From Cloacibacillus sp. (GTDB lineage Bacteria > Synergistota > Synergistia > Synergistales > Synergistaceae): DNA of 64,000 nt. Positions 18,829-41,335 of the stretch are shown in pieces (position 1 is the stretch's first letter; each line of letters begins with the position of its first letter). Below the pieces are notes generated by a model. The model saw only the letters and a program-made list of their open reading frames with translations, was not told where the DNA came from and did no database searches. A program made the position numbers and the translations under genes. The stretch is from the NCBI RefSeq assembly GCF_020860125.1, contig NZ_JAJBUX010000093.1:3-64002 (forward strand), read 5' to 3'.

Positions 18829-20447
18829 TATTTTGCCTCCTTTTTTAGCTTTTTCTGCCTGTCAAGCGCCGCCGCGATAAAATCCTTAAAGAGCGGGTGC
18901 GGCTTGACGGGACGAGAAAGGAACTCGGGGTGGAACTGAACTCCGATCATCCATGGATGATTGACGTTCTCCATAATCTCTACCTGTCCGCCGGTCGGGC
19001 AGATTCCTGCCACTTTCATTCCGGCGTCGTCAAACTCTTTGATATATTTGTTGTTGAATTCAAAGCGGTGGCGGTGACGCTCCTCTATTTCGTTGGTGCC
19101 GTATATCCGCTCAGCCTTGGAGCCGGCGCTGATATTACAGGGATAGGCTCCGAGTCTTGAGGTGCCGCCGATGTCTTTGACATTTTTCTGCTCTTCCATC
19201 AGGTAAATGACGGGATCGGGCGTATCCTCGTCCATCTCCAGGCTGTTCGCCATTTTGAGTCCCAGCACGTCGCGCGCGAATTCGATGACGGCGACCTGCA
19301 TGCCAAGGCAGAGGCCGAAATAGGGTATTCCATTTTCGCGGGCGTACTTAGCCGCGGCGATCATGCCCTCGACTCCGCGCTGGCCAAAGCCTCCGGGGAC
19401 CAGTATCGCGTCGGCGCCGCCAAGTATCTCTTCGACATTGCCGTTTTCAAGGTCGCCCGACTCAACGGGAAACATCTTTACCTTAACGCCGTTGGCGATG
19501 CCGGCGTGTGAGACCGCCTCATTAACGCTGAGATAGGCGTCCTTCATCTCCGTATACTTTCCAACCAGCGCGACGACGATCTCTCCCTTAAGGGTGTCGT
19601 GCTTGTGGAGGAATTCTTTCCAGTCCTTCATATCAGGGGCCTTCTGCGTCGGCATGCCGAGCTTTCTCAGCACGAGGTTGTCAAACTTCTGCAAATGAAG
19701 CACTATGGGGATTCTGTAGATCGAATCGGAATCTATCGCCTCAAAGACCGCATCGGCGGGGACGCTGCAAAAGAGGCCGATCTTCTCTCTGAGATCCGGC
19801 CCCACTGGATACTGCGAACGGCAGACGATGACGTCTGGCTGTATACCGATACGGCGCAGCTCGTTGACGCTGTGCTGGGTAGGTTTGGTCTTGAGCTCGC
19901 CTGAGGCCGCGATATAGGGAACGAGGGTGACATGGCAGTAAAGGATGTTTTCCCGACCGACGCGTCCGGCGAACTGGCGTATCGCCTCAAGATATGGAAG
20001 GCCCTCAATGTCGCCGACCGTACCGCCGATTTCGGCAATGACGACGTCATTACCGGCGCCGACATGTTCGATCCGGTCCTGTATTTCGTTCGTGATATGC
20101 GGTATGACCTGCACTGTGGCGCCGTTATAGCCTCCCGCGCGCTCGCGCTGGATCACGGAGGAGTAAACTTTGCCCGTGGTACAGCTGTTCTCGCCCAGGA
20201 TCGCCTCATCTATAAAGCGCTCATAATGCCCGAGATCAAGATCCGTCTCCGCGCCGTCACAGGTCACAAAGACCTCGCCATGCTGGAAGGGACTCATAGC
20301 CCCCGCGTCGACGTTGATATAGGGGTCCATCTTTATGATGCTCACCCTGTAACCGCGGCGCTTCAGCAATACGCCGAGCGACGCGGCGGTGATCCCTTTT
20401 CCAAGAGAAGAAACTACCCCGCCGGTGACAAAAATATACTTAGTCAT
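18828..20447 (-). CDS. pyrG: CTP synthase
   Basis: '[18 protein letters not shown]', glutaminase 'GLCLGMQ' and 'HRHRFEFN'. Start set to the conserved MTKYIF (ATG 20447); the track start at 20456 is a TTG. Confidence 0.93.
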
Positions 20448-27226: not shown

Positions 27227-27283
27227 AAAGGCTGAAAATCAAAAAGGGGCGGCATCGCGCCGCCCAAACATTCTCTTAAATAC

Positions 27284-28492
27284 TTACGCGAAACGCTCCG
27301 CCGCCCGTTTGAGCGTCTCAGCCTTGTCCGTGCGCTCCCAGGCCGGCATCGGATCAAGGTCGATACGCCCCATATGTCCGTAGGCGGCCAGACGCTTGTA
27401 CTGCGGTTTGCGCAGATCCAGGTCGCGGATGACTGCCGCGGGACGGAAGTCAAAGTTCTCGCGCAGCAGCTGTGTGATCTCCTCGTCCTTTATCTTTCCC
27501 GTGCCAAAAGTCTCTACCATTATCGAAACGGGCTTCGCAACGCCGATCGCGTAGGCCACCTGTATCTGGCAGGCGTCGGCAAGCCCCGCAGCGACGACGT
27601 TCTTCGCCGCGTAGCGCGCCATATAGGCCCCTGAACGGTCCACCTTCGTCGGGTCCTTGCCGGAGAAGGCGCCACCGCCGTGAGGCACAGCGCCGCCGTA
27701 AGTATCGACGATTATCTTGCGCCCCGTCAGGCCGCTGTCGGCCTGCGGGCCGCCCATCACAAAGCGCCCCGTCGGATTGACGAGAATGCGCGGCTTTGTC
27801 GTGATGAGCTGTGCGGGAATGACAGGCTTAATGACATGCTCTATAATATCCGCCTCGATCTGCTTCTGGTCGATCGCGGGGTGATGCTGGGTACTGATGA
27901 CCACTGTATCGACACGCAGCGGCTTGCCGTTCACGTACTCCACCGTCACCTGGCTCTTGCCGTCCGGACGCAGGTATGGCAGCGTCTTATTTTTGCGTAC
28001 CTCGGAGAGGCGGCGCGTCAGCTTCTGCGCGAGCGAGATTGGCAGCGGCATCAGCTCCTCCGTCTCGTTGCAGGCATAACCTACCATGAGCCCCTGGTCG
28101 CCCGCGCCGATGGCGTCTATTTCGTCATCCGAAAGCTCCTTCGCCTCTTTCGCCTTGTCGACGCCGAGCGCGATATCGGGAGATTGTTCGTCTATCGTCG
28201 TGATGACGGAGCAGGTGTCCCCGTCGAAGCCATACTTCGCGCGCGTGTAGCCGACATCCTTTACCGTCTTGCGCGCGATCTTCGGAATATCTACATAGCA
28301 GACCGTGCTTATCTCTCCCGCGACCACTATCAGTCCGGTCGATACCAGCGTCTCGCAGGCCACGCGCCCCATCGGGTCGGCTTCGAGAATGGCGTCAAGC
28401 ACCGCATCGGATATTTGATCTGCGAGTTTGTCTGGGTGTCCCTCCGTCACCGATTCCGACGAAATAAGAAACCTTTCTTTGCTCATGTTCAA
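27284..28492 (-). CDS. metK: S-adenosylmethionine synthase
   Basis: '[18 protein letters not shown]', '[12 protein letters not shown]' and '[19 protein letters not shown]'. Confidence 0.95.
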
Positions 28493-28507: not shown

Positions 28508-29923
28508 TCATGTAGCTTGCGTTATTGTAGCATCAATTTCTTCTTTTGCATAATCAGCGGCACGCTGCATATCCTCCAGCCGGCGGCAGCGGCGGGCCAT
28601 CAGGTAGGCTGCCGCGGCAGCCATCGCTATATCGGCGGCAGGACCGGCCCAGAGGACGCCGGAGAGGCCGAAATGGCGCGGCAGAAGCACCAGAAGAGGC
28701 GGCAGGAAGATCAGCTGGCGCGTAACGGAGATGAATATGCTGTAAAGCGGCATTCCCTGCGCGGAGAAAAATCCCCCGACGGAGCTCTGCAGCCCGCTGA
28801 GAAAAATCAACATCATAAAGATACGGAAAAAACGGGAGGCAAAGTCGAAATATGCCTCAGTTCCCACGCCGAAGAGCGCGGTTATCTGCCGCGGAAGCAG
28901 CTGGTAGCAGAGGAAGATGCAGAATGATACCGCCAGTACCTGCTTCACAACGATGATGCCGGCCTCCCGTACACGCGCGTAGCTTCCGCGTCCGAAGTTA
29001 TAGCTGACGATAGGCTGCATCCCGTTAGTGAGCCCGGTGACGACGGCGGCGGCCAGTGTGTTCACCTTATTGGCCACACCCGCCGCGGCGAGCGCGGCGT
29101 CGCTGCCGCAGGCCGCGGAGGCGCCATATTTTTTCAGCGCGGCGTTTAGGAATACCTGAACGACAGCCTGCGTGAAAAAGTTGCACATCGGACCCGCGCC
29201 AAGTGCGGCAATGCGAACGTAAAGCCTGAAATCAGGAAGAAAGTCAGCCGCTCTCAGGCGCAGGGTCCTGAAACGCGGCAGATAGAGGATAACCATGGCG
29301 GCGCTCACCGTCTGCGCCAGCGCCGTGGCCCACGCCGCGCCGGCAATTCCCCACGCAAAGACGTTGATGAAGAGCGCGTCGAGCGCAAGGTTCAGCAGCG
29401 TCCCCACCGCAGTGCAGCAGAGAGCGTAATTAGGGCTGCCGTCGGCGCGCACGAGGAAGGGGCCCGCAGCGCCGATCATCGCGCAGACAAAGGCGAACGC
29501 CGTTATCTGCGCGTATGGCGCGGCGTATGGCATTACCGTATCGGTACAGCCGAAGAGACGAAGCAGCGGCACCGTCCGGCAGAGCATCGCCAGCGACACG
29601 GCCATGCCGCAGACTGCCATCATCACAAAACCGCCGGCAACGCCCCGGCGCGCCTGTTCATTATCTCCGCGCCCAAGGGCAAGGTTCATGACGGCGGACG
29701 AACCGACGCCGCACATCAGCGACAGCGCAGTAATGACGGTAACGGCGGGAAAAACCACATTGGCGGCAGCGTTGCCCGCGACGCCGAGCGCGCGGCCGAT
29801 GAATATCTGGTCTACGATGTTGTAGAGCGCGGTGACGAGGCTGGCGGCAAGCGACGGAAGGCAAAAAGCGCGCATCAGCCCGCGCAGCTCTTCGCGCTCC
29901 AGCGCCTCAGCCCCATGTCTCAT
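28508..29923 (-). CDS. MATE family efflux transporter
   Basis: 12-TM-type ORF with a MATE N-terminal pattern 'LPSLAASLVTALYNIVDQIFIGRALG'. Confidence 0.8.
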   Translation of the reverse strand: MRHGAEALEREELRGLMRAFCLPSLAASLVTALYNIVDQIFIGRALGVAGNAAANVVFPAVTVITALSLMCGVGSSAVMNLALGRGDNEQARRGVAGGFVMMAVCGMAVSLAMLCRTVPLLRLFGCTDTVMPYAAPYAQITAFAFVCAMIGAAGPFLVRADGSPNYALCCTAVGTLLNLALDALFINVFAWGIAGAAWATALAQTVSAAMVILYLPRFRTLRLRAADFLPDFRLYVRIAALGAGPMCNFFTQAVVQVFLNAALKKYGASAACGSDAALAAAGVANKVNTLAAAVVTGLTNGMQPIVSYNFGRGSYARVREAGIIVVKQVLAVSFCIFLCYQLLPRQITALFGVGTEAYFDFASRFFRIFMMLIFLSGLQSSVGGFFSAQGMPLYSIFISVTRQLIFLPPLLVLLPRHFGLSGVLWAGPAADIAMAAAAAYLMARRCRRLEDMQRAADYAKEEIDATITQAT

Positions 29924-29926: not shown

Positions 29927-30994
29927 TCAGCCATCCTTCCGCACGGCGGCCGAGACCAACAATCCGCAGGCCTTATCCCGCATTATCTGACGGCGCAGCG
30001 GTTCCGCGTCGATCCGCGCCGCGGCCTCCTCCGGCGCCATCCCGCAGCCGGCGGCGATCTTCGCAATCATTGCCAGCAGATCATCCTCGGAGGCTGTCAG
30101 CCCCTCAGCCTCGGCCACCGCCTCCAGCATAAGGTCACAGCGCGCAAGCTCCTCCGCCTCGGCGCGGCGCTGGGCGCGCCATCTCTTTTCATCAAGCCCG
30201 ACAGATCCCAGCCAGGCGTTGAAAGCCTCAGCCGCAAGCTCTTCCGCCGTCATTTTGCCTTTTGCGGCGGCGCGGCGTTTTAATATTTCATCAAATTTAT
30301 CATCAAAATTGTCCGGCAGTTCTCGATAGCGCTCCGCAAGAGCTCGCATCTGCCCGCCAAGAACCTCGGCTGACGGCGCGCCGTCTGATATCGTCTCCAG
30401 CATCACCTCCAGCGCCTCGGAAGCTATCTGTGCCGGCTGCCGGGAAATCCCCGCCGCAAGATATGTCTCCCGCAGAAGCCAGACGACGTCGGCGAGCAGA
30501 TGATAGACGGCATCCTGTGAAACGTTGAGACGTTCCTGCGCCACCATCGCCTCAAGCCGCCCGTCCGTCATCTCCGGCGTAGGGGCGCCGGTGATCCCTT
30601 TACAGGCCTCTTTAAGCACCGCCATCCGAAATTCATCTTCCCCCGCCTCGGGAGGAAGCGTTATCTGAAGCCCCCTGTAGGCTCCGAGGCGCACCTTTGG
30701 ATAGAGGCCGACTTTCACACTGAAACGCAGGCCTCCGTCCGCCTGAGAAGATATCTCCGTTACCTCAGGCCTGCCCACGGTGCGCAGCCCCTCCGCCGCA
30801 ATAAATTTTCCGTAGGCCGCGGAAATGGCGGCGGCTAAAGCCTCGTCAAACACAGCCTCCGCCTCGCCAGAGGCAGAATTTTGGCCGCGTCCGCCCTCGC
30901 CGGTCATGCCCATCGTGGCGCAAAACTCCTCCGGTTCTATCAGCAGCGCGACGCTCAGCGTGCCGCTCTCCGCCGTTTTCTCAAGAATCCGCAC
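29927..30994 (-). CDS. Trigger-factor-like protein lacking the PPIase domain
   Basis: TF N-domain-like 'LSVALLIEPEEF...FSVKVGLYPKVRLGAYRGLQITLP' runs directly into TF C-domain-like helices ending 'IDAEPLRRQIMRDKACGLLVSAA'. No GFRxGxxP ribosome-binding signature and no FKBP segment. GTG start overlaps the upstream ORF by 14 nt. Confidence 0.55.
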   Translation of the reverse strand: MRILEKTAESGTLSVALLIEPEEFCATMGMTGEGGRGQNSASGEAEAVFDEALAAAISAAYGKFIAAEGLRTVGRPEVTEISSQADGGLRFSVKVGLYPKVRLGAYRGLQITLPPEAGEDEFRMAVLKEACKGITGAPTPEMTDGRLEAMVAQERLNVSQDAVYHLLADVVWLLRETYLAAGISRQPAQIASEALEVMLETISDGAPSAEVLGGQMRALAERYRELPDNFDDKFDEILKRRAAAKGKMTAEELAAEAFNAWLGSVGLDEKRWRAQRRAEAEELARCDLMLEAVAEAEGLTASEDDLLAMIAKIAAGCGMAPEEAAARIDAEPLRRQIMRDKACGLLVSAAVRKDG

Positions 30995-31463
30995 GACTCT
31001 CCGCCCTCCACGTCTCCGGCATGATCACCTCTACCGGACTGCCAAGCTTCCATTCCAGATAATCCGCATGCCCTCCGTCAAGCTCCTCAAGCTCCTCTTC
31101 TGCACAGGGAAGCCCCTCCGCCAGCCGGCTCCGGAGTTTGGCAAGCAAAGACAGACGTTCCGAATCGCGAGGATACATTTGGAAGAAGGCCAGATAACTG
31201 TATGTACGCAGACGCTCCACACGCATCTCAAAATGAGGCAGCGCCGCCAGCTCGTCAAGGCTGAGCTCGTAGGGATCGGCTGGCAGGATATCCCCCTCCG
31301 CGCCGCAATGAAAATAATATGTTTTTTCTTCCCGAGGTTCCCAATATTCGGCACCGATTATCCGCTGCAGCCGCCCGTGTTCCGCCCGGATAAAGGCGCG
31401 GCGCTCCTCGTCTATCATCGTCAAATATTTTTCCGCCGTTTTCTCATGGATGTCGCCCATCAT
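30981..31463 (-). CDS. Hypothetical 160-aa acidic protein
   Basis: ORF preceded by AGGAGGGG (overlapping the stop of the ATPase gene) plus a 4-nt spacer. No recognisable motif. Coding assumed from operon context and the SD. Confidence 0.5.
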   Translation of the reverse strand: MMGDIHEKTAEKYLTMIDEERRAFIRAEHGRLQRIIGAEYWEPREEKTYYFHCGAEGDILPADPYELSLDELAALPHFEMRVERLRTYSYLAFFQMYPRDSERLSLLAKLRSRLAEGLPCAEEELEELDGGHADYLEWKLGSPVEVIMPETWRAESRADS

Positions 31464-31473
31464 CTATCCCCTC

Positions 31474-32991
31474 CTATATCGTCCAGTCAAGTTTATTGAC
31501 ACGGTCAAGCAGCGCCTGATCCCTTTCCTGGAAACACAGCGCCTTGTTGTGCAGATAATATTTATCACAGCCGTAGTGACCGATAAAGCGCGCGCTGTAA
31601 TAACCCGCCGTCAGTTCCGTAACGAAGAGCAGCATCTCGTCGCCCTCCGCGAAGGCGCGTCCGCAAAAGTCGAATACATTGTCCAACGCCGTGCGGACCG
31701 CAGCCGCCTCCTCCCTGAGCTTCGCCACTGACGACGCGTATCTTTCCTTGATCAGCGCAAAGGCCGCGCCGCCCTCCGCCGCTCCGCTTTTGACGATAAG
31801 GGCGCGGTATTCCTCAAGAGCGGCGATAACGCGCATCAGCGCCTGTCGCTTTGCCGCCGAAAGCGAAGATGCCCGCCTTCCCCTTTCAAGCTCCTCGCGC
31901 AGCCCGGAGATCCGCCGCTCCATTATCTCCTCGGCGCCGCCCTCCTCCTGCGCCAATCGGCCGCGCAGCCTCTTCAGCTCGGAGGTCAGCAGCTCAAGCA
32001 TATCCTCGCTTCCGCAGACGCCGCGCATCTCCACCGTCACCGCGTCGCAGAGCAGCCCCAGCAGGGAAATTCTCTCGTCAAACTTCGCCTGCCTCGCACG
32101 GAAGAGCACCGATTCTTCCGCCGTGCCGGCCAAGATCGCCTCGATCTGATAGTCGCTGCGATATTTGTTGAACAGGTCGTAGTAGATGGCGAAGTCTTTC
32201 GCGATCCGCGGTTCCTGCAAATACTGGCCGATGAGCTTTTCATCGACGGCCAGCCCGTTTTCCTCACAAAGGCGCATCATCTCCGAGAGGTCGTCCCAGC
32301 CGCGCGCAGTGACAAAACGCTTGCCCTCGGCGGTGCTCTCGACTTTGTAGAAATCTTTTCTGCGCGCCGCGATATAGGTCGTGACGGCGGGATGGACGCC
32401 CTTTTTCTCCGCGTAGGCCTTCCATACCTCGTAATCCGGCTCAACGTCGATGCGCTTGAGCCGGTCCCAGGTCACGATGTCGAAATCGCGCACCGATTTG
32501 TTGTACTCGGGCGGATTGCCGGCGGTGACGACGATCCAGCCGGCGGGAATGCGGTGCTGCCCAAATACCTTGTATTGCAGAAACTGGAGCATACAGGGGG
32601 CGAGCGTCTCCGAGACACAGTTGATCTCGTCGAGAAATAGGATGCCCTCCCTCACCCCCGTCTCCTCCATCAGACGGTAGACCGATCCGATTATCTCGCT
32701 CATCGTGTATTCCGATACCTGGTATTTCTCTCCGCCGAATTCCCGCGTCGTGATATATGGCAGCCCCAGCGCGCTCTGCCGTGTATGGTGGGTCATCGAA
32801 TAGGAGACAAGCCCGACGCCAAGCTCGGCGGCGATCTGCTCCATAACGGCAGTCTTGCCGACGCCCGGCGGCCCGATCATGAATATGGGGCGTTGCTTTT
32901 CCGCCGGTATGCGGTAGGCTCCGAATTCATCCCTGGTAAAATAGGCGGTCATCGCGTTCTTTATCTGTTCTTTAGCCTCTGCTATGTTCAA
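31474..32991 (-). CDS. MoxR/AAA_5-type AAA+ ATPase with coiled-coil C-terminal extension
   Basis: Walker A 'GPPGVGKT', Walker B 'ILFLDEIN' and sensor-1-like 'VVTAGNPPEYN'. About 230 aa of Arg/Glu/Ala-rich helical C-terminus. TTG start lies 7 nt after GGGAGG. Confidence 0.8.
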   Translation of the reverse strand: MNIAEAKEQIKNAMTAYFTRDEFGAYRIPAEKQRPIFMIGPPGVGKTAVMEQIAAELGVGLVSYSMTHHTRQSALGLPYITTREFGGEKYQVSEYTMSEIIGSVYRLMEETGVREGILFLDEINCVSETLAPCMLQFLQYKVFGQHRIPAGWIVVTAGNPPEYNKSVRDFDIVTWDRLKRIDVEPDYEVWKAYAEKKGVHPAVTTYIAARRKDFYKVESTAEGKRFVTARGWDDLSEMMRLCEENGLAVDEKLIGQYLQEPRIAKDFAIYYDLFNKYRSDYQIEAILAGTAEESVLFRARQAKFDERISLLGLLCDAVTVEMRGVCGSEDMLELLTSELKRLRGRLAQEEGGAEEIMERRISGLREELERGRRASSLSAAKRQALMRVIAALEEYRALIVKSGAAEGGAAFALIKERYASSVAKLREEAAAVRTALDNVFDFCGRAFAEGDEMLLFVTELTAGYYSARFIGHYGCDKYYLHNKALCFQERDQALLDRVNKLDWTI

Positions 32992-33016
32992 AAAAATACC
33001 TCCCTGCGATACGTGG

Positions 33017-34957
33017 TCAGCCGTCTAAAGAGTAACCGGCAAAGATATCCTCGCCGGATAATTTGTCGTTTCCGTAGGCCAGCAGCAGCGCGACGATCTC
33101 CATCGCATTTTTTCGCTGCGCACGCTCAAGCGCCGCCCTGTATTCCGCCGCCCGCAGCAACGCGTGGCGCGTGAAATAGGCGGCAGCCTCCGCCAGGCCG
33201 TCGTCAATGGCGGCGGTGATAAGGGGCGCTCTCTCTTCCGCGGCCCAGAGTGCCCAAAGACGCCAGTTCTCGCCGTAATAACGCTCCTCCGCACCGCAGA
33301 AGCCGAGCGCCGCCGCCAGCCGAAGCCGTTCTTCATCAAAAGAAAGCGGCGCAAGTCCGGGAGCCTCCAAAACAAGGAGCGAATCACAGCCTGAAAACGC
33401 CTCGGAACCGACTTGTTTCACCCTCTGCGGGAGGACTGCGCGCCGCAGCTTCGCGCAGCCGGCGAAGGCGCGGCTCCCCACGCGCTCGACGCTCTCAGGC
33501 AGAATAACGGCGCGGCATTCCGCGCAGCCGCAAAAGGCGCCGCCCGCCACGACGCGGACCCCCGTGGGCGGAGATATCTCAAAGGGACTTTCCTGACAGC
33601 CGTAGCATATGCCGTCCACGATCACGAACCCCTCTTTGTCCGCAAGCATACCGCAGCCCTCAAAGATACCGCCGCCAATCTCCGCGATATCCTCGGGCAT
33701 CTCCGCCTCCCGCAAGTTGGGACAGCCGGCAAAGGCCCGCTCGCCTATACTTCTCAGCGAACGGGGCAATTTGATCTTTTCCAAAGTTTGACAATTTGCG
33801 AAGGCCCGCTCGCCTATCTCACTCACGCCCTCAGGGATAACAGCCGCGCGCAGGCTGCGGCAGCCGTAAAAGGCGCAGGCTCCCAGCCGCCGCGGCCCAG
33901 CCTCCAGTGTTAGCTCCGTCAGCAGTTCACAGTCGCGGAAGGCATAGTCGGGAACCTCTTCCACCTTTGCGGGGAGCGCCGCACTCACGACGCTCCGGCA
34001 GCCGTTAAAGGCCCCCTCGCCAATATATTCCAGCGACGGCGGCAGCTTCAGCTCAGAAAGACTGCGTGCGCCGGAAAATGCGCGGCGTTCCAGCCGCCTC
34101 AGACGACCCGGTAGCCGCAGCTGTACGTTTGTGCAGTCACAGAAGGAGTCCACGCCGATCACCTCGACACAGTCGGGCAGCTCAACGCGGCACAAATTGC
34201 CGCACCCGGAAAAGGTGCGCTCGCCAATCGCCGCCAGTTCCCCTCTGAAACTAACCTCCTCAAGATTTCCGCAGCCAAAAAAGGCCCAGCCACCAAGCAT
34301 CTTCAGGCTCGCGGGAAATTCAACGCGGCGCAGGCTGCGGCAGCCGGCGAAGATGCCGTTCTCAATATCTTTCGTGCCTTCCTCAAAGGAGACCTCACAC
34401 AGCCGCGAACAACCTTTAAAACAGTGCCAGCCGATCGTCCTCACACCGGCTGGTATGTGCGCGCGGGAGAGCCCAGTGCAGTCGGCGAAGGCGCGCCAGT
34501 CTATGAGTGAGACGCTCCGCGGAATCGAGAGTTCATCCAGCAGCACGCGCTCCGCGAAGGCGTCCGCCGCGATCATCACCGTTCCCTCCGGGATTTCCGC
34601 GCGGCGCAGATTCCGCCGGGCTTTGACGAGACATCTGCCGATGAAGAGAAAATCTTCGCGCCAGTCCGTCTCATTTTCGCTGTAATATTTATAGTAGGGA
34701 GTGCCGGCAAAGGCATCCCTCCCTATCAGGGAGACACTTTCGGGAGCCGTAACACGCCGCAGATTCACACACCACTGAAAGGCCTCTTTTCTTATCTCCG
34801 TTACGCCGTCCGGAATATAGACCTCATGGAGCGAACGGCAGTCGCGGAAAGCCCCTTCGCCAACGGCGGCCAGCCCCGGCGGCAGCTCGGCGGCATATCC
34901 GTCGCCGAGATACCTGACCAACACGCCCTCTTTTATCTCAAAATCGTCGTTTTTCAT
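33017..34957 (-). CDS. BspA/TpLRR-type leucine-rich-repeat protein, no signal peptide
   Basis: More than 15 tandem ~23-aa repeats of the form 'IPxxVxxIGxxAFxxCxxLxxV'. The N-terminus 'MKNDDFEIKEGVLVRY' is not hydrophobic. Helical C-terminal domain. ATGA overlap with the upstream VWA gene. Confidence 0.8.
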   Translation of the reverse strand: MKNDDFEIKEGVLVRYLGDGYAAELPPGLAAVGEGAFRDCRSLHEVYIPDGVTEIRKEAFQWCVNLRRVTAPESVSLIGRDAFAGTPYYKYYSENETDWREDFLFIGRCLVKARRNLRRAEIPEGTVMIAADAFAERVLLDELSIPRSVSLIDWRAFADCTGLSRAHIPAGVRTIGWHCFKGCSRLCEVSFEEGTKDIENGIFAGCRSLRRVEFPASLKMLGGWAFFGCGNLEEVSFRGELAAIGERTFSGCGNLCRVELPDCVEVIGVDSFCDCTNVQLRLPGRLRRLERRAFSGARSLSELKLPPSLEYIGEGAFNGCRSVVSAALPAKVEEVPDYAFRDCELLTELTLEAGPRRLGACAFYGCRSLRAAVIPEGVSEIGERAFANCQTLEKIKLPRSLRSIGERAFAGCPNLREAEMPEDIAEIGGGIFEGCGMLADKEGFVIVDGICYGCQESPFEISPPTGVRVVAGGAFCGCAECRAVILPESVERVGSRAFAGCAKLRRAVLPQRVKQVGSEAFSGCDSLLVLEAPGLAPLSFDEERLRLAAALGFCGAEERYYGENWRLWALWAAEERAPLITAAIDDGLAEAAAYFTRHALLRAAEYRAALERAQRKNAMEIVALLLAYGNDKLSGEDIFAGYSLDG

Positions 34958-36597
34958 CGCCGATGATTTTCCACTCGCAATTCCTCTATCTCATCCTCGC
35001 CGAGCAGCAGACGCATAGCCCATACGGGAACCTCGGGCGGCCTGCGCCCCTGGTCGATAAAGACGAAGGCCGTCTCATAATCCGGCGGCATCGCGGGAAA
35101 ATCGCCGTAACCGTCGGTAAAATAGATCAGTCCTTTAAAAGCGGTAAATTCATGCCTCTTTATGAGCCCGTCCACATATTCAAATAGCGGCCTGAAATCA
35201 GTGCCTCCAAAACCCTTGAGGGTCATGCCGCCGATATAGGCCTCAAACTCATCCTGGCTTGTAATCTTTGCGTCCTCTTCCACGCGCGCGCCGCACTGGA
35301 TGATGTGCACGTTTACCTTCGTAAAAAAATTTTCCGTCTGCCTGAGGATGTTCCACGTCTTCTCCACAAACTTCTGCACCAGCTCTCCCGCGACGGATTC
35401 CGAGGTGTCGAGCGCGATGACGAATTCACGCACCCGCCGCACCTCTTTGTATTCGAGCGCCTCGATGAGCGGCATCCGCTTATATAAAGAGAGTCCGTAG
35501 GTATAAAAAATGTAGTCAAACTCTTCGTCGTTGACCTCCATATTCTCTCCGGTCACCGCGAAGCGGCGCAGAAAAGCCGCGTAATCACATTTCTCGCGGT
35601 TTATCGCGGCGAGCGTCTGGGTGAGGCCGCCGGCATTTTCACCCCAGCTGTTGGAGACGGTATCCAGGTCCACCTCGATACGGCGCGCTATCTCCCGCCA
35701 CATCTCCTCCGTTTCCTTGGAAGCCATCGCCGGCTCGTGGCTTTTTTCCTCTTCACCGGAGCGGGCGGCGCTGTCGCCGCGCTCGCCGCCGGGCTTTTTT
35801 TCAGCGGCCGTTCCGCCTCCCTGCGCTGATTCCTCCTCCTCCCCGGAGACCGGCGGAGGGAGCTCCTCCCCCTGATCCTCAAGGCTGCCGGAGTTACTCT
35901 TTTCATCATCCTGCGGCACGGCGTTATCCCGCACCTCGCCCCTGCCGGAGCCGGAGGCCAGCTCAGGCAGTTTGTACCATATCTTATGGTCGTCCGCGTA
36001 AAAATCGGCGCGCAGCCGCTCACATTCGATAATGGGAAAGCTCTGCTCACGCAGCCAGCGATAGACGCGCTCTGCCGAGAGATGCGGCAGCTCGCCGCGC
36101 AGTTTGCGTATCAGCCACGCCTGGCGCTCCTCACGCTCACAGTAAAGCGATTTAATGCCAAGGCCGGTGATGACGTTTTCCACCGTGATATCGCAGGCGA
36201 GATCCCAGAGATCGGGATTTACCTTCGCCCCGACGAAAAGATGACGGAAGAGGCAGTGCAGCGTTATATGAAGATAATCCCGCGCCGGTATCCGCCGCCC
36301 CTGTTGAAAGCGGCGGCAGACATGCACGGAATTGTAATAGAGAAGGCGTCCGTCGGTGGCCATCTCGGCCGTGACGGTGTCATTCTCCGGTATGAACTTT
36401 ATAAGGGCCGATTCCAGAAAACGCAGATTGATGAGCAGAGCGTCGCGTGAGAGGCGCAGTATTTCCCGCGCCAGCGCCGCGGCCTCGCGCGCCGTTTCGC
36501 CGAGCCGCCGGCTGCCGTCCGGCGTTGAATAGCCGTGCGCCTTTTTGATCTGAGCGGCGCTGACCTCCCACTCTTTGTTGTCCATCGCTCTCTCCAT
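34954..36597 (-). CDS. VWA-like (DUF2201-type) protein with N-terminal helical putative-peptidase-like domain
   Basis: C-terminal VWA pattern 'FVIALDTSESV', 'GFGGTDFRPLF' and 'LIYFTDGYGDFP'. The N-domain has 'HITLHCLFRH'. About 80 aa of acidic linker. Start is ATG 36597 or 36585. Confidence 0.7.
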   Translation of the reverse strand: MERAMDNKEWEVSAAQIKKAHGYSTPDGSRRLGETAREAAALAREILRLSRDALLINLRFLESALIKFIPENDTVTAEMATDGRLLYYNSVHVCRRFQQGRRIPARDYLHITLHCLFRHLFVGAKVNPDLWDLACDITVENVITGLGIKSLYCEREERQAWLIRKLRGELPHLSAERVYRWLREQSFPIIECERLRADFYADDHKIWYKLPELASGSGRGEVRDNAVPQDDEKSNSGSLEDQGEELPPPVSGEEEESAQGGGTAAEKKPGGERGDSAARSGEEEKSHEPAMASKETEEMWREIARRIEVDLDTVSNSWGENAGGLTQTLAAINREKCDYAAFLRRFAVTGENMEVNDEEFDYIFYTYGLSLYKRMPLIEALEYKEVRRVREFVIALDTSESVAGELVQKFVEKTWNILRQTENFFTKVNVHIIQCGARVEEDAKITSQDEFEAYIGGMTLKGFGGTDFRPLFEYVDGLIKRHEFTAFKGLIYFTDGYGDFPAMPPDYETAFVFIDQGRRPPEVPVWAMRLLLGEDEIEELRVENHRR

Positions 36598-36621: not shown

Positions 36622-39060
36622 CTATTTTCTCTCGGGCAGCGGCGGCATTGCCGCAAACTTGCCGCGCAGATCCTCCGCGCCGAAAGCCGTCTCTCCCGTA
36701 CGCTCACGTTCCTTCAGCGCGCGCCAGATACGCTCCGGCGTTATCGGCAGTTCGCGCAGCGTCAGGCCGGTCGCATAGTTTACGGCGTTGCCGATCGCCG
36801 AACCTACCGGCGCGGTACTGCCCTCGCCCGCCTCTTTCGCACCCATCGGCCCTTCGGGATCGGCCTCGCTGCAAATGATCGTCTTGACCGGCGGCATGTC
36901 GAGCGCCGTCGGGAAGCGGTAATCGCGGAAGCTGGGGTTCATATGCCTGCCGTCCTTGCTGTATACGCATTCTTCAAAACAGCTGAATCCAAGGCCGAGA
37001 AGGACCGAACCCTCGATCTGCCCCTCGACGGCGCGGATATTCAGCGCGCGGCCACAGTCGTGAGCGAAGACGAAATCCTTCAGATCTACGCAGCCCGTCT
37101 CCATATCGACCTTCATCCTGGCCGCCGAAGCTGAGAAAGAATAGGCCGGAGCGTAGTTGCCTACGTTCTTCACATAGATGTCCTTGTCGCCCTCGTGCGC
37201 AAAAGAGCCGACACCGGCAACGCAGCGGCCAAAGTTCCTCTCCTCGTAGCCAAAGCAGGCCTCGTTATAGGAGATGTTCTTCTCCGCGTCTCCCTCAATA
37301 AATACGCGGTGGTCTTTCATCTTGATATCAGAGGGCTTGCAGCCCCACTCCTCCGCCCAGTGCGACAGCAGTTTAAGCTTCGCGTCGCCGACGGCGCGGC
37401 GGCAGGCGTTGCCGCCGAGGAAGGTGACGCGCGAGCCAAAGGAGCCGGCGTCCCACGGCGTCGTCGTAGTATCTGACTGCACAAGCTTCACCTCGTCCAT
37501 ACGCAGCCCCAGCTCCTCGGCGACGATCATCGTCATCACCGTATCGCAGCCCTGTCCGATATCGTTTGCGCCGCAGAAGACTACGGCGTAGCCCTCGCGG
37601 TTGAGGCGGACGATTGTGGAGGCAGAGCAGTAGTGCGGCGTAACAAGTACGGGGAATCCCGTTCCCGACATGAAGCCAGAACCGGAGAGGCCGACCGCCT
37701 CGCCGCTTCTGGGGAAAAACTTGTCCCTCTCCGCCCAGCCGATGGCGTCGGCGCAGGCGACAAGGCACTCGTCAAACTTGCATGAGGTAAACTCAAGGCC
37801 TGTGGGCCCTGTGTAATAGGGAGTGATCTCGTTCCTGCGGCGCAGTTCAAGCGGGTCTATCCCAAGCGCGTTCGCCACCTCGTCCATGTGGATTTCGTGG
37901 GCAAAGTGTACCTGACAGGCGGAATAGCCGCGCATTGCGCCCGAGGCCGGATGGTTTGTGTAGGGGCGTCTGGCCGTCATGTCGATATTTTCCACCTTAT
38001 AGGGGAAGGTGGCGCAAATCAACGAAAGGGTGTTCGCCGCGATGCCCGAGCCGCCGTAAGCGCCGCCGTCGAGGATGTGCTTGCAGCGCTTGGCGAGCAT
38101 CTTTCCCTCTTTGGTAAAGGCGGTCTCGATCTCAAAGGATATCGGATGGCGCGTGCGCGTGCAGGTGAAAACCTCGTCGCGTTTTAGCACGCACTTCACG
38201 GGATGTCCCGTCATCTGCGCAAATTTACAGGGGCAGAGTTCATGGGCGAAGACGTCGAGCTTGCCGCCGAAACCGCCGCCGACCATCGGCTTGATGACGC
38301 GTACCCTGCTTTCTGGAACGCCGAGCCCCCAGGCGATCCAGAAACGGCTCACATAAGCGCCCTGTGTCGTCGTCCAGACGGTCCATTCGCCGTTTTCATA
38401 TTTCGCCACGGCTCCGTGCGGTTCGATGGCGGCGTGGACCATCTCCTGCGTCTTGTAGTAATGTCTGTCGGTGTAATAGGCCTCCGCAAAGGCCTTGTCC
38501 GGGTCTCCCGCCTTCATCGTCGTAAAGATCGAGAGGTTGCCGGTGTTCGGATAGTGTATCGGCTCGGCCTCCGGCTGCATCGACTCAAAGGGGTCGAGGA
38601 TGACCGGCAGCGGCTCATATTCCACCTTGACGAGCGCCGCCGCCTCCGCGGCGATATTCTCCGTGACGGCGCAGACCGCCGCGACCTCGTCGCCGATCAT
38701 CCTTACTTTTTTACGGCAGAGCGGCTCCTTGTCCGCCAGTTCCTTGAAGGCCTCGGGGTTGCCGAGATTATGCCCCTCGGGGAAATCGCTCCCCGTGAGC
38801 ACCCCCTTCACGCCTGGCAGCTTGAGCGCCTCGGTAAAGTCTATGCTTTTGATGACGGCGTGCACATACGGGCTGTGAACGAGCTTGCAGTAATACATCC
38901 CGGGCAGGTCTACGTCGTCGGTATAGACGGCGCGCCCCGTCACCTTAGCCTCGGCGTCTACGCGCACATAGGCGTTCCCTTTTCCGGCAAGCTCATAGTC
39001 TTCGGGTTTTTTATAAACGCTCTCGATTTCGGAGTAATATTCCTTTGATTTCATCGCCAT
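36622..39060 (-). CDS. Molybdopterin-binding large subunit, xanthine dehydrogenase/aldehyde oxidase family
   Basis: 812 aa with 'MVGGGFGGKLD', the C-terminal 'GAKEAGEGSTAPVGSAIGNAV' (catalytic Glu region) and an a/b-hammerhead-like N-terminus. Confidence 0.88.
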   Translation of the reverse strand: MAMKSKEYYSEIESVYKKPEDYELAGKGNAYVRVDAEAKVTGRAVYTDDVDLPGMYYCKLVHSPYVHAVIKSIDFTEALKLPGVKGVLTGSDFPEGHNLGNPEAFKELADKEPLCRKKVRMIGDEVAAVCAVTENIAAEAAALVKVEYEPLPVILDPFESMQPEAEPIHYPNTGNLSIFTTMKAGDPDKAFAEAYYTDRHYYKTQEMVHAAIEPHGAVAKYENGEWTVWTTTQGAYVSRFWIAWGLGVPESRVRVIKPMVGGGFGGKLDVFAHELCPCKFAQMTGHPVKCVLKRDEVFTCTRTRHPISFEIETAFTKEGKMLAKRCKHILDGGAYGGSGIAANTLSLICATFPYKVENIDMTARRPYTNHPASGAMRGYSACQVHFAHEIHMDEVANALGIDPLELRRRNEITPYYTGPTGLEFTSCKFDECLVACADAIGWAERDKFFPRSGEAVGLSGSGFMSGTGFPVLVTPHYCSASTIVRLNREGYAVVFCGANDIGQGCDTVMTMIVAEELGLRMDEVKLVQSDTTTTPWDAGSFGSRVTFLGGNACRRAVGDAKLKLLSHWAEEWGCKPSDIKMKDHRVFIEGDAEKNISYNEACFGYEERNFGRCVAGVGSFAHEGDKDIYVKNVGNYAPAYSFSASAARMKVDMETGCVDLKDFVFAHDCGRALNIRAVEGQIEGSVLLGLGFSCFEECVYSKDGRHMNPSFRDYRFPTALDMPPVKTIICSEADPEGPMGAKEAGEGSTAPVGSAIGNAVNYATGLTLRELPITPERIWRALKERERTGETAFGAEDLRGKFAAMPPLPERK

Positions 39061-39542
39061 TACATATTCGCCTGCCTTTCCAGTATCTTTGCCGCAGAAT
39101 CGATCGCCTCGACGATCTTCGTGTAGCCGGTGCAGCGGCAGAGGTTGCCGGCGATTGCATCGCGGATCTCATGTTCCGTCGGGCGGGGATTCTCATGCAG
39201 CAGCGAAAGAGCCGACATTATCATGCCGGGCGTGCAAAAGCCGCACTGCAGGGCCCATTTATCCATAAATTCCCTCTGCAGGGGATGCAGGACGCCATCC
39301 TTCATGACGCCTTCGATGGTGACGACCTCACGCCCGTCGGCCTCGACGGCCAGCATCAGGCAGGAGTCGACTGCCGCGCCGTCAAGCAGGATGGTGCAGG
39401 CGCCGCACTCGCCCTCCTCACAGCCGCGTTTTGTCCCCGTCATGTGCATCTGCTGGCGCAGAAAATCGACCATCGTGATGTTGTCCGCCACCAGCTCTTC
39501 GACGTTCTCGCCGTTAAGTTTAAAATTTATGATCCTCTTCAT
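39060..39542 (-). CDS. [2Fe-2S]-binding small subunit of molybdenum hydroxylase
   Basis: 'GCEEGECGACTILLDG' and 'QCGFCTPGMIMS...NLCRCTGY'. 1-nt stop/start overlap with the large subunit. Confidence 0.92.
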   Translation of the reverse strand: MKRIINFKLNGENVEELVADNITMVDFLRQQMHMTGTKRGCEEGECGACTILLDGAAVDSCLMLAVEADGREVVTIEGVMKDGVLHPLQREFMDKWALQCGFCTPGMIMSALSLLHENPRPTEHEIRDAIAGNLCRCTGYTKIVEAIDSAAKILERQANM

Positions 39543-39560: not shown

Positions 39561-40442
39561 CTAAGCCCTCAGCGTCTCAAGCGCTCTCTTAACGGCGCGC
39601 TTCGTGTAGACGCGCACCATGTCCCGCCGATACTCCTCGGAGGCGCGCACGTCGGAGATCGGGCTGCACTCCCGCGAGGCGGCTAGACCAGCCCTCTCCA
39701 ACAGATCATCGTCGGCGGCGCTGCCTTTCAGCAGCCTCTCCGCCTCCGGCGCGCGCAGCAGCGTCACACCGACGCCGCCCATCGCGATGCGGCAGTCTGT
39801 TATCCGGCATCCGTCCATCTTTACCCAGGCCGCGACGCCGATGATCGCCAGGTCCATCGCCTTGCGCACCGAATGCTTAAAATACGCGGAGCCCTCCTGC
39901 GGCTTTAGCTCGGGGATATTTATCCTCGTGACGATCTCTCCCGCCGCTTTGTCGATACAGTTCCTTTTTACACCGGTGAAAAATTCTCCGACAGGTATCA
40001 CCCGTTCGCCGTTTTTACCGTAAACCGACACGGAGGCGTCCATCGCCACCAGTATCGGAGCGGTGTCGGCCGAGGGCGAGGCGTTGCAGATATTGCCGGC
40101 CATCGTCCCCTTTCGGCGGATCTGCGTTGAGGCAACATAGTGCGCGGCGTCGGCTACGGCAGGCATTTTTTCGCACACCAGCGGCGAGTTATGGATCGCG
40201 TAGAGCTTCGTAAGGGCGCCGATACGCAGCCCCTCGCCCTCGACAAATTCCAGCCCGTCCATACCGGGGATATTTTTCAGGTCGATGACGCTCTCCACGC
40301 CCCTCAAAACATTTTCCTTCAGTAACAGGATCACATCAGTCCCGCCCGCCATCAGCACGCATCTGCCGGCCTGCGCGGCCGCGAGCTCCGAGGCCTCCTC
40401 AAGACTTTTGGCGGCTATATAATTAAAATTCGGCAAAGTCAT
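39561..40442 (-). CDS. FAD-binding medium subunit of molybdenum hydroxylase (CoxM/XdhB-like)
   Basis: 'FNYIAAKSLEEA', 'LMAGGTDV', 'GTMAGNICNASPSADT' and 'SDVRASEEYRRDM'. ATG 40442 is preceded by GGGAGG. Confidence 0.88.
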   Translation of the reverse strand: MTLPNFNYIAAKSLEEASELAAAQAGRCVLMAGGTDVILLLKENVLRGVESVIDLKNIPGMDGLEFVEGEGLRIGALTKLYAIHNSPLVCEKMPAVADAAHYVASTQIRRKGTMAGNICNASPSADTAPILVAMDASVSVYGKNGERVIPVGEFFTGVKRNCIDKAAGEIVTRINIPELKPQEGSAYFKHSVRKAMDLAIIGVAAWVKMDGCRITDCRIAMGGVGVTLLRAPEAERLLKGSAADDDLLERAGLAASRECSPISDVRASEEYRRDMVRVYTKRAVKRALETLRA

Positions 40443-40595
40443 TTCTGTTCCTCCCTTTTTGATCGTATATCTTTTTCCCAGGCTCTCCCGTGAGCGCTGC
40501 ATTTTTATCTTAGAAGCAAAAAAATATTGGGATAAGCAGCCTTGGCTACTTGTGTAGTCAGAAATACAATGCTATCTTCGTTGTACGGGGGGTGG

Positions 40596-41306
40596 ATGGC
40601 GGTGGGAGAAAATAATGATGCCATTGACGGGATACGTGACGACCAGATACGCCACCTTTACTATCTGCCGCAGGGTATCGCGCGGCTTGAGGCGCTGGGA
40701 GAGGTCATTCATGTGGGCAAGGGGTACGAGCTTAACAAAGTAGACGAGGTGCCGGAATATTGCTATCTTGTGAAGGAGGGGCGCGTCATCTGTTACGAAC
40801 TTACCTTCGGCGGCGAACAGCGCGTGTACAGCTTCATGGAGCCAAACTCCGTCTTTCTTGAGGAATGTATGCTGGTAGACAAGCCCAGCCCCGTCCTCTT
40901 CAAGACGGCCGCGCCCTCTACGCTCGTGCGCATCCATAAATGCGCGCTGAAACACGCCTTCAAGCACGACATCGACATCGTAATGGACATCTGCAAATCA
41001 ATGGCGGAAAAATTTCTCTCCGCGATGGGGCAGATACGCTACGGGCAGCAGAAATCAGCTGAATGGAAGATATGCCGGCTGCTGCAGATTTTTATGGGAC
41101 ATTACGGCGCGGATTACGACGGAAAGATTCTCATCGCCGAGAAGATCAGCCAGCAGATGATCGCAGACATGCTCGGCATGAACCGCGTGACGGTCTCAAA
41201 GAAATTCAAGGAGCTGCGGGATATATCGCTGCTGGAACAGATCAACGGCTACATCTGCATTCGCAGCGCCGAGGCGCTGCAAAAACACATGGAACTGATG
41301 AAATAA
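40596..41306 (+). CDS. Crp/Fnr family transcriptional regulator
   Basis: cNMP-binding-like N-domain and a C-terminal HTH 'SQQMIADMLGMNRVTVSKKFKELR'. Divergent from the Mo-hydroxylase operon. Start is uncertain (in-frame TTG 40542, ATG 40569, ATG 40596). Confidence 0.8.
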   Translation: MAVGENNDAIDGIRDDQIRHLYYLPQGIARLEALGEVIHVGKGYELNKVDEVPEYCYLVKEGRVICYELTFGGEQRVYSFMEPNSVFLEECMLVDKPSPVLFKTAAPSTLVRIHKCALKHAFKHDIDIVMDICKSMAEKFLSAMGQIRYGQQKSAEWKICRLLQIFMGHYGADYDGKILIAEKISQQMIADMLGMNRVTVSKKFKELRDISLLEQINGYICIRSAEALQKHMELMK

Positions 41307-41335
41307 AAATAGCCGGCGGAGGCAGCTCCGCCGGC
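41301..41335 (-). terminator. Intrinsic terminator after rlmB (hairpin also closes the crp-like gene)
   Basis: Perfect 10-bp stem GCCGGCGGAG/CTCCGCCGGC with loop GCAG (41312-41335), followed on the minus strand by TATTTTTATTT. Confidence 0.7.

Follow-up and report, generated by a model that had tools for sequence, protein, structure and literature searches.

The contig analysed here is a 64-kb piece of a metagenome-assembled genome (MAG) of Cloacibacillus sp. (Synergistaceae), and the whole stretch of 64,000 nucleotides is referred to as the window. An earlier sequence-only reading drew attention to five consecutive minus-strand open reading frames (ORFs) that encode a protein with a VWA (von Willebrand factor A) domain, a leucine-rich repeat (LRR) protein, an AAA+ ATPase, a small acidic protein designated o160, and a trigger-factor paralog (TF-like). 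That reading treated the five genes as one coupled unit. We find that they are the middle of a conserved nine-gene operon, which also encodes a molybdenum (Mo) enzyme and a MATE transporter, and that they are not a self-contained unit. The five genes are located as follows:

34954-36597, minus strand: DUF2201-type VWA protein, 547 amino acids (public gene calls start at 36585, giving 543 amino acids)
33017-34957, minus strand: cytoplasmic BspA-type LRR protein, 646 amino acids
31474-32991, minus strand: AAA_5 (MoxR-like) ATPase, 505 amino acids, TTG start
30981-31463, minus strand: o160, an acidic protein of 160 amino acids
29927-30994, minus strand: trigger-factor paralog (TF-like), 355 amino acids, GTG start

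All five ORFs were found at the positions and on the strand claimed for them, and the four junctions are as the sequence-only reading described. The VWA and LRR genes share a 4-nucleotide ATGA overlap, the LRR and ATPase genes are separated by 25 nucleotides with a GGGAGG upstream of the TTG start, the ATPase and o160 genes by 10 nucleotides with an AGGAGG, and the TF-like gene overlaps the o160 gene by 14 nucleotides at its GTG start. The motifs that had been quoted (ALDTSES, GFGGTDF, IYFTDGYGD, GPPGVGKT, and ILFLDEIN) are all present in the translations, and the domain assignments were borne out by Pfam, with o160 lacking any match. The base composition is also like that of the surroundings, as had been claimed, with a GC content of 0.58-0.61 that is in line with the flanks. 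In the contig record the cluster proteins are labelled "ATP-binding protein", "hypothetical protein", "trigger factor", and "molybdopterin-dependent oxidoreductase". The tight coupling of the five genes stands, but their status as a unit does not, as equally tight packing runs on both sides. The VWA gene begins 24 nucleotides after the Mo gene and the MATE gene begins 3 nucleotides after the TF-like gene, so the five-gene boundaries cut a larger unit. The other four members of this unit are:

39561-40502, minus strand: FAD-binding subunit of the xanthine-dehydrogenase family (FAD_binding_5 and CO_deh_flav_C)
39060-39542, minus strand: 2Fe-2S subunit (Fer2 and Fer2_2), with an 18-nucleotide gap to the FAD gene and a 1-nucleotide overlap with the Mo gene
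36622-39060, minus strand: molybdopterin-binding (Mo) subunit, 812 amino acids (Ald_Xan_dh_C and MoCoBD_1/2)
28508-29923, minus strand: MATE transporter (MatE), the last conserved operon gene, 3 nucleotides after the TF-like gene

The order in the operon is FAD, 2Fe-2S, and Mo subunits, VWA, LRR, AAA_5 ATPase, o160, TF-like, and MATE, and the gaps from the FAD gene to the MATE gene are 18, -1, 24, -4, 25, 10, -14, and 3 nucleotides. The FAD-subunit gene probably starts at 40442, leaving the longest-ORF start at 40502 unused. The ATG at 40442 has a GGGAGG eight nucleotides upstream and gives a protein of 293 amino acids with the same start in public records.

The spread of the operon was examined with an ATPase scan that took one genome per species and returned 80 loci, 26 with an ATPase of at least 64% identity to that of the window and 54 at 57-63%. 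The order M-S-L-VWA-LRR-AAA-o160-TF-like, where M, S, and L are the FAD, 2Fe-2S, and Mo subunit genes, was found in all 26 high-identity loci where the contig allows, usually followed by the MATE gene. The window ATPase and these 26 form one clade of 27 with no outsider. The hosts of the clade belong to the Lachnospiraceae, Oscillospiraceae, Anaerovoracaceae (Anaerovorax, Zhenpiania, and, in locus L084, Mogibacterium), Gracilibacteraceae, and Synergistaceae (Cloacibacillus and Fretibacterium). Locus L004 is from a cultured species, Anaerovorax odorimutans (DSM 5092). The order is likewise kept in four loci anchored on o160; L084, L087, and L088 have the full set alongside a Crp-type regulator, in many cases with a TylF-like methyltransferase as well. 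When metagenomes were scanned with the TF-like protein as the anchor, 52 loci were returned, and the full set is present in all of the ~30 that have enough flank. Conservation of the gene order in relatives, proposed by the sequence-only reading as a check, is seen in every related locus with enough flank. The MATE protein, at 54-63% identity, occupies the same position in most Lachnospiraceae and Anaerovoracaceae loci. The o160 and TF-like genes occur in enzyme-linked clusters only, apart from distant larger proteins with an o160 domain in other operons.

Across the syntenic loci, identity to the window is 79-90% for the Mo subunit, 71-87% for the 2Fe-2S subunit, 58-71% for the FAD subunit, 64-85% for the ATPase, 49-76% for the VWA protein, 38-55% for the LRR protein, 36-50% for o160, and 33-45% for the TF-like protein. 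The cluster recurs in a second Cloacibacillus species (L092-L094), where it occupies the same position beside metK, the gene for S-adenosylmethionine (SAM) synthetase. Between the window and this species, the synonymous divergence (dS) is 0.6-1.26 for the cluster genes and 0.43-0.57 for metK. The ratio of nonsynonymous to synonymous divergence (dN/dS) is 0.03-0.04 for metK, 0.037 for the Mo gene, 0.12 for the ATPase, 0.20 for o160, 0.21 for the LRR gene, and 0.31 for the TF-like gene. All cluster genes are under purifying selection (dN/dS 0.04 to 0.31). The shared position on the metK side and the metK-like dS indicate that the cluster is old in Cloacibacillus, and the earlier claim that it was not recently acquired therefore holds within the genus. 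The Mo subunit identity of 80-90% between Synergistota and Bacillota points to an older horizontal spread of the whole operon between these phyla. A phage or plasmid origin of the locus was considered and rejected: no plasmid was found to carry the full-length ATPase, and among viruses it was found on one of 2.9 million IMG/VR contigs and on a few unannotated faecal virome fragments. In locus L138 (2705-9866) the region from the FAD gene to the middle of the TF-like gene has been replaced by a serine-recombinase element, the cargo of which includes a large serine recombinase and HTH-PIN-ankyrin, radical SAM, kinase/HAD-like, and GIY-YIG proteins.

Four further features lie around the operon:

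27284-28492, minus strand: metK, SAM synthetase (S-AdoMet_synt domains), 15 nucleotides behind the MATE gene with no terminator between
40596-41306, plus strand: Crp/Fnr-type regulator (cNMP_binding and HTH_Crp_2), divergent from the operon
27247-27265, minus strand: strong intrinsic-terminator-like hairpin, the first one 3' of the gene string (eight pairs, seven of them G-C, then a T run)
41312-41335, minus strand: strong terminator-like hairpin (ten pairs, nine of them G-C, then a T run) that closes the preceding minus-strand unit and gives the upstream boundary of the operon

The Pfam hits for the flank and enzyme genes were precomputed on an identical contig (L081, where 1686-2396 is window 40596-41306). 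Strong terminator-like hairpins are found only outside the FAD-to-MATE string. metK is outside the conserved cluster, as it is cluster-adjacent in Cloacibacillus loci only, and a homologous Crp-type regulator flanks the cluster in at least nine other loci. Housekeeping genes make up the wider flanks: uvrA and spoU lie beyond one end, and metK, pfk, and rho beyond the other. A Crp-box palindrome was sought in the divergent promoter and none was found, nor was a SAM riboswitch found near metK. An Rfam scan at the gathering score and a tRNA scan of the 64-kb window were both empty.

The ATPase matches the Pfam families AAA_5 (2.8e-8, 34.3 bits against a cutoff of 22) and AAA (9.5e-8). The Walker A (GPPGVGKT) and Walker B (ILFLDEIN) motifs include residues G40-T47 and L120-E122, which are invariant in 45 sequences, and they are followed by a conserved segment, GNPPEY...WDRLKRIDV. 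The protein had been called MoxR-type, and this holds in the broad AAA_5 sense but not in the narrower one: the MoxR-proper model AAA_3 gave no match at E <= 0.1, and the bpMoxR model scored 21 bits, below its 27-bit cutoff. The long tail that had been claimed was recovered as helices predicted at residues 304-499 by AlphaFold2 (AF2). The AF2 model (pLDDT 75) consists of an AAA+ core, a helical hairpin at 304-447, and a conserved C-terminal bundle. For the helix-2 insert and pre-sensor-1 beta-hairpin of MoxR-class ATPases, the relevant observation is a modelled beta-hairpin at 80-93 between helices 66-75 and 97-111, with only moderate confidence there. The best PDB sequence match is a midasin AAA module. 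Foldseek searches with the model returned generic AAA+ proteins, including NorQ and CbbQ, and did not separate the MoxR clade from the classical AAA+ clades. The ATPase has more than 8000 relatives at 57-85% identity. PHROG 249, labelled "porphyrin biosynthesis", matches residues 30-75 only.

The VWA protein is assigned to DUF2201_N (1.7e-8) and DUF2201 (9.8e-11, 42.3 bits against a cutoff of 26.4), both above cutoff, while the general VWA models remain below their cutoffs. An acidic linker joins its zincin-like N-domain to a VWA domain in which the metal ion-dependent adhesion site (MIDAS) is intact; the residues of this site (D397, S399, S401, T466, and D495) do not vary in 29 relatives. In the N-domain, the sequence H-I-T-L-H aligns to HETWH of Shigella phage B2 gp2. 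None of 48 relatives has the catalytic Glu, its position being taken by I, L, T, M, or V, and an active metallopeptidase was rejected on this basis. Residues H110, H114, H119, C135, D136, and E140 are invariant, so a metal site may persist, and the N-domain is probably a metal-binding module and no peptidase. Sequence and profile searches of the PDB returned no relative of the VWA protein. A DUF2201 VWA gene is found in the operon of the ATPase in 70 of the 80 loci, and several of the ten misses are cut by contig ends. PHROG 1314, to which the phage VWA/metallopeptidase proteins belong, matches the VWA protein at 1e-29; its label, "HNH endonuclease", looks wrong, given that the phage homologue is recorded as a putative metallopeptidase.

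The LRR protein matches LRR_5 over six stretches (4e-114). Its lack of a signal peptide, noted earlier, is consistent with a translation in which no N-terminal hydrophobic segment was found, and a signal-peptide-like N-terminus is present in only ~3 of the 105 LRR proteins associated with VWA-ATPase loci. A BspA-type surface adhesin was considered because of the LRR_5 repeats and was rejected, as there is no signal peptide and the HupY/LrrG model, for which the cutoff is 1250 bits, gives 137. Only the 20 enzyme-linked LRR proteins have the C-terminal helical domain of ~110 amino acids.

Pfam gave nothing for o160, in agreement with the description of an acidic ORF without a recognisable motif. 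The family is narrow, with 63 clusters in a first search, all unannotated, and 66 representatives in a HMMER search of 1.84 billion proteins. An AF2 model of high confidence (pLDDT 91.8) found nothing better than E 0.4 in Foldseek searches of the PDB and BFVD. H52 and H132 do not vary, and C120 is kept in most sequences. Remote relatives carry an o160 domain at the C-terminus of proteins of 350-398 amino acids (P0256, P0261, and P0257 in loci L143, L144, and L145), and sequence and profile searches of the PDB with o160 and with these relatives found nothing. The remote relatives have a nearly invariant RNxLAH motif; the same positions are unconserved in o160, where the consensus is WHKLTH and the window has RSRLAE. 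RNxLAH presumably resembles the Rx4-6H dyad of HEPN domains. No HEPN model or structure matched o160 or the remote relatives, and a HEPN-like domain was rejected for o160 since the dyad is not conserved in o160 proteins. The operon of P0256 (L143, 2592-13927) encodes coupled genes for an AAA_22 protein of 1802 amino acids, a radical SAM/SPASM protein, a protein of 375 amino acids without assignment, and an AAA protein of 699 amino acids.

The TF-like protein matches only Trigger_N (8.8e-10) and Trigger_C (2.5e-9), which agrees with the earlier description of a trigger-factor-like protein without a peptidyl-prolyl isomerase (PPIase) domain. The profile of the TF-like family matches the N and C domains of trigger factors in the PDB. 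A score of 68.6 bits was obtained against TIGR00115, for which the cutoff is 180.2. The ribosome-docking loop GFRxGxxP appears as PGyAaGlAP in TF-like relatives and is replaced in the window protein. A bona fide trigger factor (tig) was rejected because the TIGR00115 score is below cutoff and both the PPIase (FKBP) domain and the GFRxGxxP loop are missing. Given the loss of this loop, the TF-like protein is probably not ribosome-bound.

The closest solved structure to the Mo subunit is the alpha subunit of 4-hydroxybenzoyl-CoA reductase (1rm6, 1e-113). When the three enzyme subunits were compared with the NCBIfam equivalogs, all were below every cutoff, and the 4-hydroxybenzoyl-CoA reductase models for alpha (TIGR03194), beta, and gamma scored 617, 134, and 197 bits against cutoffs of 995, 405, and 258. 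Additionally, no Cys-rich [4Fe-4S] insert is visible in the FAD subunit on direct reading of the translation. Identity as 4-hydroxybenzoyl-CoA reductase was rejected on these two grounds. By its sequence, the enzyme is an uncharacterised member of the xanthine-dehydrogenase family that is related to 4-hydroxybenzoyl-CoA reductase. The Mo subunit extends beyond the end of the 1rm6 alignment in a C-terminal tail of ~26 amino acids, FGAEDLxEKFAxMPPLPxR (window 36622-36700). The tail is recognisable in 17 of 17 aligned orthologs, with its distal end diverged in two of them (L008 and L022), and it could serve as a docking handle for accessory proteins. Chaperones of the XdhC type are usually required for enzymes of this family (PMC2997495), which makes it telling that no XdhC_CoxI-type chaperone gene was found within 10 kb in four annotated loci. 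In some Oscillospiraceae versions of the cluster (L009 10087-11306, L002, and L011), genes for a type-I-dehydroquinase-like protein and a DUF2798 membrane protein lie between o160 and the TF-like gene. A gene for a TylF-like methyltransferase is a frequent neighbour of the cluster (L004 12363-13217; L087 13962-14879). These dehydroquinase-like, DUF2798, and TylF-like neighbours may hint at the kind of substrate, conceivably a hydroxylated aromatic or alicyclic acid. The genes present, their order and coupling, their strict co-occurrence, the intact motifs, and the purifying selection described above are direct observations.

We tentatively propose that the five proteins are an ATP-driven maturation or reactivation machine dedicated to the neighbouring Mo enzyme. 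In such a machine, the AAA_5 ATPase would be the ring motor and the DUF2201 protein its obligate VWA cofactor, which would grip a partner via the intact MIDAS site, with the zincin-like N-domain as a non-catalytic and probably metal-binding module. The LRR protein, with its cluster-specific C-terminal domain, would be the adaptor that recognises the enzyme as the client. The TF-like paralog, which has no ribosome-docking loop, could act as a free-standing holdase for a subunit in the apo or partly unfolded state, and o160 may be a small co-factor of the machine. The folded apo- or inactivated enzyme would be opened, and the Mo cofactor or its sulfido ligand would be inserted or restored. Precedents are CoxD/CoxE acting on CO dehydrogenase, NorQD on nitric oxide reductase, and CbbQO on Rubisco. 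Every physical interaction in this scheme is our inference, as are what the client is and which step is catalysed.

The sequence-only reading had offered two possibilities, a dedicated protein-maturation machine or a sensor (LRR) plus switch (AAA+/VWA) module. Since the operon includes the three Mo-hydroxylase subunits and usually the MATE gene, we weight maturation above sensing at this locus and keep the sensor for the family as a whole. Maturation is favoured by the strict linkage of the set to a slow-evolving enzyme, a transporter, and a Crp regulator. It is also favoured by the clade-specific o160, trigger-factor paralog, and LRR C-terminal domain, as well as by the missing XdhC-type chaperone and by the CoxD/CoxE, NorQD, and CbbQO precedents.

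Several observations weigh against this proposal. First, the accessory proteins evolve far faster than the enzyme, with 33-50% identity for the TF-like protein and o160 and 79-90% for the Mo subunit. Second, the linkage has gaps. No TF-like gene lies downstream of o160 in L015 and L022, and L089 (7696-11618) has a 5'-truncated Mo gene followed after 38 nucleotides by o160 and the TF-like gene, with no VWA-LRR-ATPase triad and no FAD or 2Fe-2S genes. The L089 locus adjoins a CRISPR-Cas locus and many of its genes are split, which suggests indel errors of long-read sequencing in this contig. We rejected L089 as a natural triad-less variant, since the truncated Mo gene, the two missing subunits, and the split genes are those of a damaged locus. 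Third, the operons of the remote o160 relatives look like conflict systems. Finally, the 54 other loci from the ATPase scan have the VWA-ATPase pair without the Mo enzyme, o160, or the TF-like gene. The triad being common without the enzyme, its generic function cannot be maturation of this enzyme.

The non-enzyme loci carry one to eight cytoplasmic LRR_5 genes, and LRR genes are present in 43 of the 54. In a few loci the LRR slot is taken by another protein, an ankyrin protein in L048 and L062 and a DUF6273/BRCT protein in L066 and L067. Tandem arrays of four to eight LRR_5 genes are found in L036 (3537-17070), L045, L070, and L080, and the arrayed proteins share an N-terminal cap, MSDFVIENGVLTKYxG...VVIPEGV. 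An LRR gene between the VWA and ATPase genes, for which the sequence-only reading knew of no described system, is not confined to this operon, as the triad is widespread in gut Clostridia that lack the enzyme beside it, with isolates of Flavonifractor and Pseudoflavonifractor as examples; it remains the case that no described match was found. The neighbours of these loci include defence-type genes. In L086 the triad is flanked by BrxA/BrxB of the BREX system and by GmrSD (2053-3253 and 17392-19122). Four loci show translational coupling between the ATPase gene and an AbiH/SIR2_2-like gene, which in L042 (7111-8004) overlaps the ATPase start. WYL-WCX regulators and SbcCD lie beside some of the triads, and a LexA-like repressor and a serine recombinase beside that of L064. 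PADLOC assigned WYL, Cas3, Cas6, BrxL, methyltransferase, and other genes among 129 neighbours of the non-enzyme loci and returned few, weak hits among 76 neighbours of the enzyme-linked loci, a contrast that is suggestive. The variable LRR numbers and the defence-type neighbourhoods keep the sensor alive for the family as a whole. As is evident from the wider triad, the core module has a more general use, and we therefore hold the maturation role somewhat below an even chance at this locus and regard a conflict-type function as unlikely here. It is possible, although on the improbable side, that the family is a three-component targeting system in which a tailed AAA_5 ATPase and a dead-zincin DUF2201 VWA protein work with interchangeable LRR_5 or ankyrin specificity subunits, mostly against foreign proteins, and that one branch has been domesticated for the Mo enzyme with o160 and the TF-like protein.

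The conflict-type alternative is a ternary NTPase of conflict or defence in which the LRR protein would sense an invader protein and the AAA+/VWA pair would be a threshold switch. The module would then be fixed in the enzyme operon for an unrelated reason, or would guard or deploy the enzyme or its product. The non-enzyme triads, with one to eight LRR genes and swappable ankyrin or DUF6273 proteins, fit this scheme, as do those that lie beside BrxA/BrxB, GmrSD, AbiH/SIR2-like, WYL, Cas3, Cas6, BrxL, recombinase, or LexA-like genes, and conflict systems of the MoxR-vWA ternary kind form an established class (PMC7159879, PMC8195603). The remote o160 relatives with RNxLAH, which are encoded beside large AAA_22 and radical SAM proteins, can be counted with them. 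However, none of the five proteins has a significant PADLOC match, no effector domain is present, and the zincin-like domain lacks the catalytic Glu. Within the clade the set is strictly tied to a slow-evolving enzyme, a transporter, and a Crp regulator, the LRR protein is a single ortholog under purifying selection (dN/dS 0.21), and only 1 of 2.9 million viral contigs carries the ATPase.

A more doubtful alternative is that the set serves regulation, quality control, or scaffolding. The AAA+/VWA/LRR set would take the finished enzyme apart, switch it off, sequester it, or localise it, for instance towards the MATE transporter or under stress from oxygen or substrate, and no cofactor would be inserted. 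The operon linkage speaks for this alternative as much as for maturation, and RavA-ViaA modulates finished respiratory complexes and does not build them (PMC10585395, PMC3893208). The conserved MATE gene and the Crp regulator suggest a substrate-responsive module, but in some Oscillospiraceae loci there is no MATE gene at that position. The zincin-like domain is inactive yet conserved, which is also consistent with such a role. On reading the five protein sequences no membrane-targeting element was seen, and a holdase-type trigger-factor paralog fits folding or assembly better.

It is improbable that the LRR proteins are themselves the clients, with the AAA+/VWA pair folding, assembling, or exporting LRR or ankyrin proteins, assisted here by the trigger-factor paralog and o160, and with the enzyme adjacent for reasons of co-regulation. 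The repeat protein is indeed the sole partner kept by the VWA-ATPase pair across the 80 loci, LRR genes occur in 43 of the 54 non-enzyme loci, and the LRR proteins share the conserved N-terminal cap motif. This alternative would leave unexplained why o160, the TF-like gene, and the LRR C-terminal domain occur only with the enzyme and why the enzyme genes are never separated from the set, and no secretion component is present. A chance juxtaposition of unrelated genes can hardly be entertained and is refuted, as dozens of loci in two phyla share the identical order and their frames overlap or nearly abut.

Xanthine-dehydrogenase-family enzymes of strict anaerobes drive the metabolism of purines, aromatic compounds, and drugs in the gut and rumen. 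How the Mo-sulfido cofactor is gained and kept up without XdhC-type chaperones is poorly known, and the operon offers a concrete and widespread candidate machine. In literature and profile searches we found no description of such a helper set for a Mo enzyme. If maturation is the function at this locus, heterologous expression of the enzyme is predicted to fail without the five helpers. The operon also gives a first functional handle on the cytoplasmic BspA-type LRR proteins that are abundant in Clostridia, on DUF2201, on the PPIase-less trigger-factor paralog, and on a new fold of 160 amino acids. The LRR/ankyrin-VWA-ATPase triad is a large unannotated family, the ATPase alone having more than 8000 relatives. 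If true, a three-component targeting system with a domesticated branch would directly link immune-type sensing to enzyme maturation in evolution.

Nothing in Pfam, NCBIfam, PADLOC, PHROGs, the solved-structure searches, or the papers searched places the set in an already characterised system, in line with what the sequence-only reading had supposed. Literature searches on DUF2201/PF09967/COG3864, on BspA with MoxR, and on xanthine dehydrogenase with VWA, AAA, or trigger factor found no description. In PADLOC-DB v2 the best match was IetA (9e-6, P-loop only), with nothing for the VWA, LRR, o160, or TF-like proteins. A chelatase of the CobS/CobT or Mg-chelatase (BchI/BchD) type was rejected, as the Mg_chelatase model scored 19.2 bits against a cutoff of 20.3 over the P-loop only and there was no match to CobT.

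CoxD and CoxE are accessory AAA+ and VWA proteins encoded directly downstream of coxMSL and are needed for sulfuration and metal insertion (PMC4240915, PMC3471820). The present operon likewise has AAA+ and VWA genes directly downstream of M-S-L genes for an enzyme of the same superfamily. In contrast to CoxDEF, the VWA protein here is of the DUF2201 type with no VWA_CoxE match, and neither the cluster nor the flanking +/-10 kb contains an XdhC-like CoxF. The helical tail of the ATPase, at ~200 amino acids, is a further difference, and LRR, TF-like, and 160-amino-acid proteins are added. The hosts are anaerobic and there is no Cu site to build. The pairs NorQ/NorD and CbbQ/CbbO remodel a folded client enzyme, with metal insertion or inhibitor release as the result (PMC9976466, PMC13036017, PMC4660213). 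They resemble the set in that AAA_5 and VWA/MIDAS genes lie beside the client enzyme, and the ATPase model has NorQ and CbbQ among its fold matches, although only as weak ones (E about 1e-4, low TM-score), with FtsH, p97, and Vps4 matching at least as well. The N-terminal domain of the VWA protein is a different one, and the NorQD and CbbQO systems have no third repeat protein and no trigger-factor paralog.

In the MoxR-vWA ternary conflict systems of Kaur, Iyer, and Aravind (2020/2021), which occur in multicellular bacteria, the third component is of the VMAP, iSTAND, TERNS3, or beta-propeller type and effectors are fused to vWA domains (PMC7159879, PMC8195603). The likeness to the present family is an AAA+/VWA pair with a variable, repeat-built third component in variable contexts, sometimes with defence genes. 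The difference is that a cytoplasmic BspA-type LRR or ankyrin protein takes the third place, neither an effector nor a third-component domain of those types was found in the set, and the hosts are gut Clostridia and Synergistaceae. The same AAA_5 and DUF2201 families are encoded side by side in N4-like phages (Shigella phage B2 gp1/gp2, L148 1-2128), the MoxR-like ATPase gene coming first and the gene for the putative metallopeptidase, whose C-terminus is VWA-like, second. The phage DUF2201 protein keeps HExxH (HETWH), where the window family has H-[ILTMV]-x-L-H. The phage ATPase, at ~340 amino acids, has no tail and is ~25% identical, and there is no LRR, o160, or TF-like gene.

PceT-type proteins are trigger-factor-like proteins that are encoded in the operon of a cofactor-bearing redox enzyme and act as its private chaperone. 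PceT retains the PPIase domain, is not known to have the N domain, and works on a twin-arginine translocation (Tat) signal peptide. The TF-like protein has recognisable trigger-factor N and C domains but neither a PPIase domain nor the GFRxGxxP loop, and the enzyme encoded beside it has no Tat signal peptide. Trigger-factor-like chaperones for reductive dehalogenases are named in titles in the reference list of PMC8905343. XdhC/PaoD-type chaperones deliver the molybdenum cofactor to xanthine-oxidase-family enzymes or sulfurate it (PMC2997495). The presumed end result would be alike, and no sequence or domain relation to the five proteins was detected. The set would appear to work most like a MoxR/VWA enzyme-maturation pair that has been extended by three new components.

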